64,000 nt of DNA from Escherichia coli. Lineage in GTDB: Bacteria; Pseudomonadota; Gammaproteobacteria; Enterobacterales; Enterobacteriaceae. The position numbers and the translations under genes were made by a program. A model generated the notes under the pieces. The model searched no databases, was not told the origin of the DNA, and saw only the letters and a list, made by a program, of their open reading frames with translations. The stretch lies in assembly GCF_003334405.1 (NCBI RefSeq), contig NZ_QOWM01000002.1; one strand, given 5' to 3'. Shown here piece by piece: positions 51,172-51,971 of the stretch; within the stretch, counting starts at the first letter, position 1; each line of letters begins with the position of its first letter.

Positions 51172-51636
51172 TCAATGGGTTTCTTCTGTTTCTCGGGTGA
51201 GGGTTTCCCAGTCGGCAGGAGGATGTCCTCTTTTTAACATTTTGCTGAATACGGTATAGGCATCTGTTTTTTTACCGTAGGTGCGCAGAGTGTTTTCATC
51301 GTTCATCCATCCCAGAATGATGACTTTCTCTTTTTCACTATAACGAAAGAAGAGACGATAACGACCAGCACCAAATTTTACCCGTGACCAGTCTTTATTT
51401 TTCCCAGAGCCTAACGACTTGCCATGACGGAATGCCGGTGATGATGGATTGACCGTGATATGCTCCTCAATCACTTTATGGACTACCGCCAATAACTTTG
51501 TGGCGGCTTTTCTCTGATAATTTTCAGGATCTTTTCCCTTTAATGTCTCGACTTCGGCAACTAAAGCGTCGTAGGTTTCCTGAAAACAGGGATGAGCATA
51601 TAGCGCCCAACCATTAACCCTTTGTGGAAAATCCAT
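51172..51636 (-). CDS. yhaV: type II toxin YhaV (ribosome-dependent ribonuclease)
   Basis: 154-aa ORF immediately downstream of prlF with overlapping stop/start. Confidence 0.9.
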   Translation of the reverse strand: MDFPQRVNGWALYAHPCFQETYDALVAEVETLKGKDPENYQRKAATKLLAVVHKVIEEHITVNPSSPAFRHGKSLGSGKNKDWSRVKFGAGRYRLFFRYSEKEKVIILGWMNDENTLRTYGKKTDAYTVFSKMLKRGHPPADWETLTRETEETH

Positions 51637-51971
51637 TATTCGTCGTCGCCAATCTCATCATCAATGTTGACGTCCATGCCAGCGACAAGTTTCTTTCCTT
51701 GTTGAATGTTGAATGGACGAGTTTTTTGCGGGTTGTTCTGGATATCTGCATCCAGAAAACGCAAAAATGCATTCATAGTATGATCCTCCTGTTCATCTCC
51801 CAGTCGGCACATAAATACTTGCCCACCAGGCAGAATTTCGTAATGAATGCTGTCCTGGCCTGGCTTCAGTTTTAAGGCCTCACGCACTGGCGCGGGGATA
51901 GTTGTTTGTCCGCGTATCGTGACCTTTGATTCAGTGGTCAGTACAGCGTGAGAGCGAGCATTAGCGGGCAT
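51636..51971 (-). CDS. prlF: type II antitoxin PrlF (SohA), AbrB/SpoVT-like
   Basis: 111-aa ORF; swapped-hairpin-like N-terminus; acidic C-terminus DEIGDDE. Confidence 0.9.
   Translation of the reverse strand: MPANARSHAVLTTESKVTIRGQTTIPAPVREALKLKPGQDSIHYEILPGGQVFMCRLGDEQEDHTMNAFLRFLDADIQNNPQKTRPFNIQQGKKLVAGMDVNIDDEIGDDE

Follow-up and report, generated by a model that had tools for sequence, protein, structure and literature searches.

A stretch of Escherichia coli DNA of 64,000 nucleotides (contig NZ_QOWM01000002.1 of assembly GCF_003334405.1; hereafter the window) holds two short genes between agaR and garD which an earlier note, made from the sequence alone, described as the type II toxin-antitoxin pair prlF-yhaV. 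The question that this locus raises is whether the two genes are indeed that pair and, if so, how they would be expressed, how their products would act and whether the pair could serve another function. Here we conclude, with very little doubt, that the locus is the already characterised chromosomal type II toxin-antitoxin operon prlF-yhaV of E. coli.

Identity and expression of the locus

Open reading frames (ORFs) of 111 and 154 aa were found at exactly the coordinates and with exactly the sizes given earlier, the first encoding the antitoxin PrlF and the second the toxin YhaV (Table 1). The strand had been left unstated; both genes lie on the minus strand. The plus strand reads CAT at 51634-51636 and TTA at 51636-51638, which corresponds to TAATG on the minus strand, such that the described overlap of stop and start is borne out and amounts to one shared base. 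This overlap suggests that the two genes are translationally coupled. The pair is hence an antitoxin-first two-gene operon with overlapping genes, and the same order is found in the loci of Salmonella, Yersinia and Rhizobium.

The family assignments hold as well. A search with hidden Markov models for the PrlF and YhaV families, which had been proposed as a check, was run and matched both proteins far beyond chance. The NCBIfam model NF007429 (type II toxin-antitoxin system PrlF family antitoxin) covers PrlF in full, scoring 170 bits against a cut-off of 125 (E 1.4e-50), and Pfam PF15937 (PrlF_antitoxin) matches it with 7.2e-42. YhaV matches Pfam PF11663 (Toxin_YhaV) with 8.9e-54 over 137 of 138 model positions, and the identical protein bears the name YhaV in RefSeq.

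For a direct comparison, positions 3274000-3284000 of K-12 MG1655 were used as the reference segment. Between the stops of garD and agaR, all 1002 bp agree with K-12 MG1655, and PrlF and YhaV have the same sequences as b3129 and b3130. Because proteins and these 1002 bp are identical to K-12, the window holds the locus of the published experiments. The neighbours are agaR (50308-51117, plus strand; NF040755, 465 bits) and garD (52120-53691, minus strand; TIGR03248, 941 bits), both far above the equivalog cut-off, which confirms the position between the aga and gar sugar operons. A 1401-bp query (50900-52300) was recovered by megablast to at least 80% of its length from 5116 of 5426 complete E. 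coli genomes, about 94%, whose annotation in the matching DNA was in every case yhaV, prlF, agaR and garD. The pair had been called a known module, and so it is: its DNA is that of the characterised K-12 pair, and RefSeq gives the names prlF and yhaV in thousands of genomes. In all, the present analysis demonstrates the genes, their family membership, the identity with K-12, the toxin fold as predicted, the candidate promoter and a conserved palindrome.

Table 1. Features of the prlF-yhaV locus and RNA elements elsewhere in the window (window positions).
Feature	Position	Strand	Basis
prlF (sohA), antitoxin, 111 aa, ATG start	51636..51971	-	ORF listing of 49500-54000
yhaV, toxin, 154 aa, ATG start; ribonuclease (published assays), RelE/ParE fold (predicted)	51172..51636	-	ORF listing of 49500-54000
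TAATG junction, one base common to prlF stop TAA and yhaV start ATG	51634..51638	-	sequence
Sigma-70-like promoter, -35 TTTGCA (52036-52031), 17-nt spacer, -10 TATAAT (52013-52008)	52008..52036	-	consensus scan
Operator-like palindrome TAATGCA-N2-TGCATTA over the -35	52028..52043		inverted-repeat search
Shine-Dalgarno-like AAGGA, 9 nt 5' of prlF ATG	51981..51985	-	sequence
garD intrinsic terminator, 10-bp stem then T-run; upstream boundary	52072..52097	-	inverted repeat and terminator scan
GC-rich inverted repeat ATGCCCGC/GCGGGCAT between convergent agaR and yhaV; downstream boundary	51124..51160		inverted-repeat search
Heptanucleotide tandem repeat (TTCAACA)x2 in prlF	51700..51715	-	TRF, period 7, 2.3 copies
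Hairpin in prlF mRNA/DNA directly 5' of the heptanucleotide repeat	51723..51767	-	nested inverted repeats
rimP leader	8544-8644	+	Rfam above gathering threshold
naRNA4	13343-13413	+	Rfam above gathering threshold
S15 leader	14926-15040	+	Rfam above gathering threshold
SraG small RNA	15270-15441	-	Rfam above gathering threshold

The candidate promoter upstream of prlF, a pattern match with 10 of 12 consensus positions, is the top site of the region. An internal promoter-like site just before yhaV (51664-51635) matches at 9 of 12, close to chance expectation, and was rejected. The palindrome over the -35 has counterparts in relatives of the operon. In an alignment of the DNA upstream of prlF, the Salmonella homologue has GGTAATGCA-N2-TGCATTACC at the same upstream position and the Yersinia homologue a perfect 22-bp palindrome, TGGTAATGCAA/TTGCATTACCA. 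Both lie at the E. coli distance from the start codon, in surrounding DNA that has diverged. Since the palindrome was kept while its flanks diverged, it forms a clean phylogenetic footprint; in the Rhizobium copy that place is taken by a different palindrome. The E. coli palindrome is the presumed autorepression site for PrlF or the PrlF-YhaV complex. Its conservation agrees with the report that the complex binds a palindromic site in the prlF promoter (PMC7781912, citing Schmidt 2007).

The GC-rich inverted repeat downstream may be a terminator shared by agaR and yhaV; no T-run follows it, and the terminator scan made no call there. The intergenic region between garD and prlF is the site of an insertion in genome 17MR471, otherwise 100% identical here, where ISApl1 (IS30-like) lies at window position 52067/52068, about 24 nt upstream of the prlF -35 and operator and just past the garD terminator.

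Toxin, antitoxin and proposed mechanism

Since a sequence search of the PDB copy at hand yielded no relative of YhaV, its structure was predicted from an alignment of 61 homologues, which gave a model with a pLDDT of 91 and a pTM of 0.87. When this model was compared with the PDB by Foldseek, the top matches were all toxins of the RelE/ParE superfamily, with probabilities up to 1.00: PfiT, HigB2, M. tuberculosis RelE1 and E. coli RelE, YoeB and ParE. YhaV as modelled has the RelE-type alpha/beta fold, and its assignment to RelE/ParE is confirmed by prediction. Residues K87, R92, R98, R118, Y120 and Y127 are invariant in the 61 homologues and R85 and R94 nearly so; the conserved basic residues fall in or beside the model strands 83-87, 92-99 and 104-110. 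We note that the legend of Fig. 2 in PMC7781912 names PDB entry 2KHE 'YhaV monomer'; 2KHE is the RelE of Thermus thermophilus.

PrlF has two conserved parts in the homologue alignment, residues 15-38 and a C-terminal LVAGMDVNIDDEI-DD segment, and its acidic C-terminal segment LVAGMDVNIDDEIGDDE is conserved. The N-terminal part, at about residues 15-39, contains the AbrB/MazE-type motif SKVTIRGQTTIPAPVREALKLKPG. PrlF had been called AbrB-like, a description that stands on the literature and on borderline matches, namely 27.1 bits to TIGR01439 (AbrB), below the cut-off of 28.3, and a weak match to Pfam PF04014 (MazE_antitoxin; E=0.0023), below the curated threshold. A PDB search with the PrlF profile matched only AbrB-family chains and regulators, at E of about 0.4, and the Rhizobium PrlF homologue has recorded matches to both PF04014 and PF15937. 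Alignment by hhalign to E. coli MazE and B. subtilis AbrB gave uninformative probabilities of 5-7%. The AlphaFold model of the PrlF monomer, made from a shallow alignment of 14 sequences, is poor (pLDDT 44). A dimer is the expected folded state of the PrlF domain, and the PrlF tail should fold on the toxin.

Toxicity, neutralisation, ribonuclease (RNase) activity, complex stoichiometry and operator binding would carry over to the window from the literature on the identical sequence. YhaV was reported to digest mRNA and rRNA in vitro, an activity lost when two conserved arginines were replaced (PMC5408214). Binding to the 50S subunit and frame-dependent, translation-dependent cleavage of mRNA are described in PMC7781912 (citing Choi et al. 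2017). Growth arrest by the toxin and its neutralisation through direct binding of the antitoxin, both for the K-12 sequence, are described in PMC7781912 and PMC5408214 (citing Schmidt 2007).

The operon would accordingly be read, on published and predicted properties, as follows. One promoter would give a bicistronic minus-strand mRNA, from which PrlF would be made first; its N-terminal part would bind DNA in the AbrB/MazE manner, and its C-terminal part, conserved and acidic, is probably the one contacting YhaV. YhaV would then be made from the start that overlaps the prlF stop; free YhaV would cleave mRNA in a translation-dependent manner and halt growth. PrlF would bind and neutralise YhaV in a complex reported as PrlF2-YhaV4, which would bind the palindrome over the -35 and repress its own operon. 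Were PrlF lost, YhaV would be set free.

Nothing was found to contradict this reading, which does have weak points. No NCBIfam model matched YhaV, whose assignment comes from Pfam and RefSeq naming. The PDB copy searched holds no sequence relative of either YhaV or PrlF, and the toxin fold is predicted rather than solved. As modelled, a RelE fold would not separate a RelE-type RNase from a ParE-type gyrase poison, the RNase call coming from the published assays. The reviews disagree on the need for ribosomes, PMC5408214 describing ribosome-independent activity in vitro and PMC7781912 ribosome-dependent activity. Finally, the sequence links that suggest an AbrB fold of PrlF are borderline, and the monomer model is of too low confidence to confirm it.

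The heptanucleotide repeat and other readings of the pair

Within prlF, two units of TTCAACA occupy nt 259-272 of the gene, codons 87-91, encoding FNIQQ (plus strand TGTTGAATGTTGAA at 51701-51714). In the PrlF homologue search, many E. coli and Shigella sonnei entries are 115-151 aa long, with repeated HSTFNIQ blocks or altered C-termini. Simulated genes with 1-8 units reproduce these database variants exactly, and the lengthened or altered entries are thus explained by a varying number of heptanucleotide units. With 3, 6, 9 or 12 units PrlF ends in ...HSTRKETCRWHGRQH; with 4, 7, 10, 13 or 16 units it ends in ...FNKERNLSLAWTSTLMMRLATTNNGFSTKG, the frame running through the yhaV start; and with 5, 8, 11 or 14 units it stays in frame, gaining 7 aa per 3 units.

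Unit numbers in complete genomes were read from the match span of a 16-unit probe, and the two longest arrays were inspected directly. Nineteen of 5145 matching genomes, from unrelated sources, carry 3-19 perfect units, 17 of them out of frame: eleven have 3 units, and arrays of 4, 5, 6, 7, 9, 12, 14 and 19 units occur once each. A one-unit probe found the two-unit form in 5121 genomes (99.5%) and other forms in 22, three of which possibly have one unit, as counted by probe match only. The six expanded genomes that were fetched all have perfect arrays and an intact yhaV of 154 aa. Two genomes with identical record coordinates for yhaV and agaR carry 12 and 19 units, which suggests rapid change once an array is long. 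Many of the Shigella sonnei protein entries correspond to 7 to about 30 units.

Gain of one unit is the prlF1 7-bp duplication, known for Lon-dependent suppression of export jamming and of degP defects (PMC5408214, PMC7781912). In a large study of laboratory evolution, all lines with a prlF mutation carried a 'duplication of TTCAACA', and these lines showed resistance to carbenicillin and aztreonam, lower ompF and sensitivity to H2O2 (PMC7686311). The prlF1 duplication was also fixed as a compensatory mutation, relieving the costs of amplification (PMC12107188). Our literature searches gave no description of natural multi-unit expansions, reports on variable-number tandem repeats used for typing possibly lying beyond their reach.

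It is tempting to see in (TTCAACA)n a natural slippage-prone switch and not merely a laboratory hotspot, a proposal we regard as quite improbable. As part of it, one added unit, being prlF1, may activate Lon, lower ompF and confer resistance or heteroresistance to beta-lactams, and longer arrays may shift the frame fast and reversibly, removing and restoring the acidic C-terminus of PrlF with the toxin gene intact. The hairpin directly 5' of the repeat (RNA fold -17 kcal/mol, z = -3.26) may aid slippage locally. As a conserved RNA element it was rejected, being absent from the Salmonella and Yersinia homologues. Relatives of prlF lack, in the alignment, the FNIQQ codons that carry the repeat. 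Since they have neither hairpin nor these codons, both features are confined to the E. coli lineage.

These alleles bear on the alternative that survives best, namely that the selectable function resides in PrlF, which would regulate Lon protease activity and envelope or proteotoxic stress, with YhaV toxicity secondary. It would fit the Lon-dependent effects of prlF1, the repeated selection of this allele in laboratory evolution (PMC7686311, PMC12107188) and the presence of the same and longer alleles in natural isolates with yhaV intact. It would supplement the toxin-antitoxin mechanism, however, rather than supplant it; PMC12107188 leaves the molecular link to Lon unexplained, and Maeda et al. 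(PMC7686311) attributed the phenotype at least partly to the RNase activity of YhaV. We hold it to be rather unlikely.

A second alternative takes the pair for what is left of an addiction module that came from a plasmid or prophage and became domesticated, a remnant which now stabilises the neighbouring DNA against loss. Homologues of YhaV (43-54% identity) occur on 328 plasmid records, 175 of which are predicted conjugative, and one is found in a phage record (Vibrio phage). Those of Salmonella enterica (YhaV 67% identical), adjoining pRha and ANT antirepressor genes, and of Yersinia mollaretii (YhaV 63%), between a lysis cassette and KilA-N/ParB genes, are in prophages, the identity of these PrlF-YhaV homologues being 60-67%. 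With its presence on plasmids, in prophages and in a phage, the family is mobile, as expected of addiction-type modules. The module is also AT-richer than its neighbours, with a GC content of 0.455 compared with 0.52-0.55, and its GC content at third codon positions is 0.40-0.46 as opposed to 0.56-0.60. This base composition would be a mild signal of horizontal transfer; relative to the window, with a mean GC of 0.504, the module reaches only the 16th percentile of 800-nt windows.

Further evidence speaks against such a remnant. No mobile-element remains flank the pair. Of the 5426 complete E. coli genomes, about 280 gave no match whatever with probes for prlF, and in 310 the 1401-bp query is covered to less than 80%. 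In genome 20AR0300, an IS1-linked deletion that starts inside yraJ and reaches the 3' end of garD (window about 36250-52140) has taken the aga cluster, agaR and prlF-yhaV. Because this isolate lost the pair and is viable, the module does not enforce its own retention. A stabilising remnant is, in our opinion, an improbable explanation.

That the pair is mainly an anti-phage module for abortive infection or superinfection exclusion, infection freeing YhaV and shutting down translation, agrees with the Salmonella and Yersinia homologues at positions typical of prophage accessory genes and with the homologue in the Vibrio phage record, and is nonetheless very improbable, given that no PADLOC family matched PrlF or YhaV even at E up to 1, that the pair is flanked here by core metabolic operons instead of residing in a prophage or defence island, that it is found in about 94% of E. 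coli genomes, and that no report of phage defence by PrlF-YhaV turned up, in literature searches none of which was aimed at phage defence.

The same results bear on how the pair should be labelled. The earlier note took it for the only recognisable defence or addiction element of the window. The label of a toxin-antitoxin or addiction-type element is retained; that of a defence system is not, because PADLOC matched neither protein. Its being the only such element is consistent with the RefSeq annotation of C122, a 99.96% identical genome spanning the whole window, in which no other toxin-antitoxin or defence gene is named. The Rfam scan of the window contained no type I antitoxin RNA, and PADLOC, run on ten poorly characterised ORFs of the window as a subset of all its ORFs, returned only a weak oxidoreductase-domain match, for yhbW.

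Significance, surroundings and comparison with known systems

The reading as the characterised prlF-yhaV operon means that the locus is already known in every respect stated in the earlier note. For the pair itself, the result is that a textbook E. coli locus has been annotated correctly, which helps little beyond labelling the window. The additions are modest. The predicted fold of YhaV supports RelE/ParE membership for a protein with no sequence-related solved structure in the PDB copy searched, and the conservation of the operator palindrome in prophage-borne relatives pins down the likely binding site of PrlF. The third addition is that the prlF1 hotspot has natural multi-unit expansions, in which the toxin gene is kept intact. 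If these reflect selection, a tolerance of stress and antibiotics that wild E. coli and Shigella inherit, though not stably, would be tied to a chromosomal toxin-antitoxin pair.

The window as a whole shares about 99.96% identity with E. coli C122, and the offset alignments against that genome are accounted for by a 113-nt tandem repeat (2.5 copies, 94% identity; 58735-59014) directly downstream of rnpB (58381-58757). The gene yhaC (59258-60445, minus strand) is an intact ORF of 395 aa here and, in the RefSeq annotation of C122, a pseudogene with an internal stop; PADLOC gave no match for yhaC or yhaB. Besides the elements of Table 1, Rfam matched two tRNAs and RNase P RNA in the window, and none of the Rfam matches is related to toxin-antitoxin systems.

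Among known systems, the closest is the K-12 PrlF(SohA)-YhaV pair itself (b3129/b3130; Schmidt et al. 2007, Choi et al. 2017), with which promoter, palindrome, intergenic regions and the neighbours garD and agaR are all shared. K-12 differs only in the wider context, which shows that the window does not come from it: the window has an intact agaW-agaE-agaF-agaA (nagA), and K-12 lacks window positions 45602-47896, a deletion that leaves agaW and agaA as pseudogenes.

The homologues on prophages and plasmids (Salmonella enterica, Yersinia mollaretii, Pantoea, roseobacter plasmids) have the same gene order, abutting genes and both Pfam families, and the operator palindrome is common to E. coli and the two enterobacterial prophage copies. 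They differ in having 43-67% protein identity and in residing on mobile elements, whereas the copy in the window is fixed between core operons.

With the toxins of RelBE, HigBA, YoeB-YefM and ParDE, YhaV shares the predicted fold and only 6-18% sequence identity, and it matched none of the Pfam RelE/ParE families. At 154 aa it is larger than these toxins, which have about 85-115 aa, the model adding a hairpin at the N-terminus and helices at the C-terminus. Its antitoxin would be of AbrB/MazE type, whereas those of RelE/ParE toxins are of the RelB, HigA or Phd/YefM type.

PrlF, in turn, shares with the MazE/AbrB/SpoVT regulators the motif at residues 15-39 that gives rise to its weak matches to Pfam MazE_antitoxin and TIGR01439, but all its direct matches to MazE or AbrB fall under the curated thresholds. 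The two antitoxins would also differ in what they neutralise, a toxin of RelE fold in the case of PrlF and one of MazF fold in the case of MazE.
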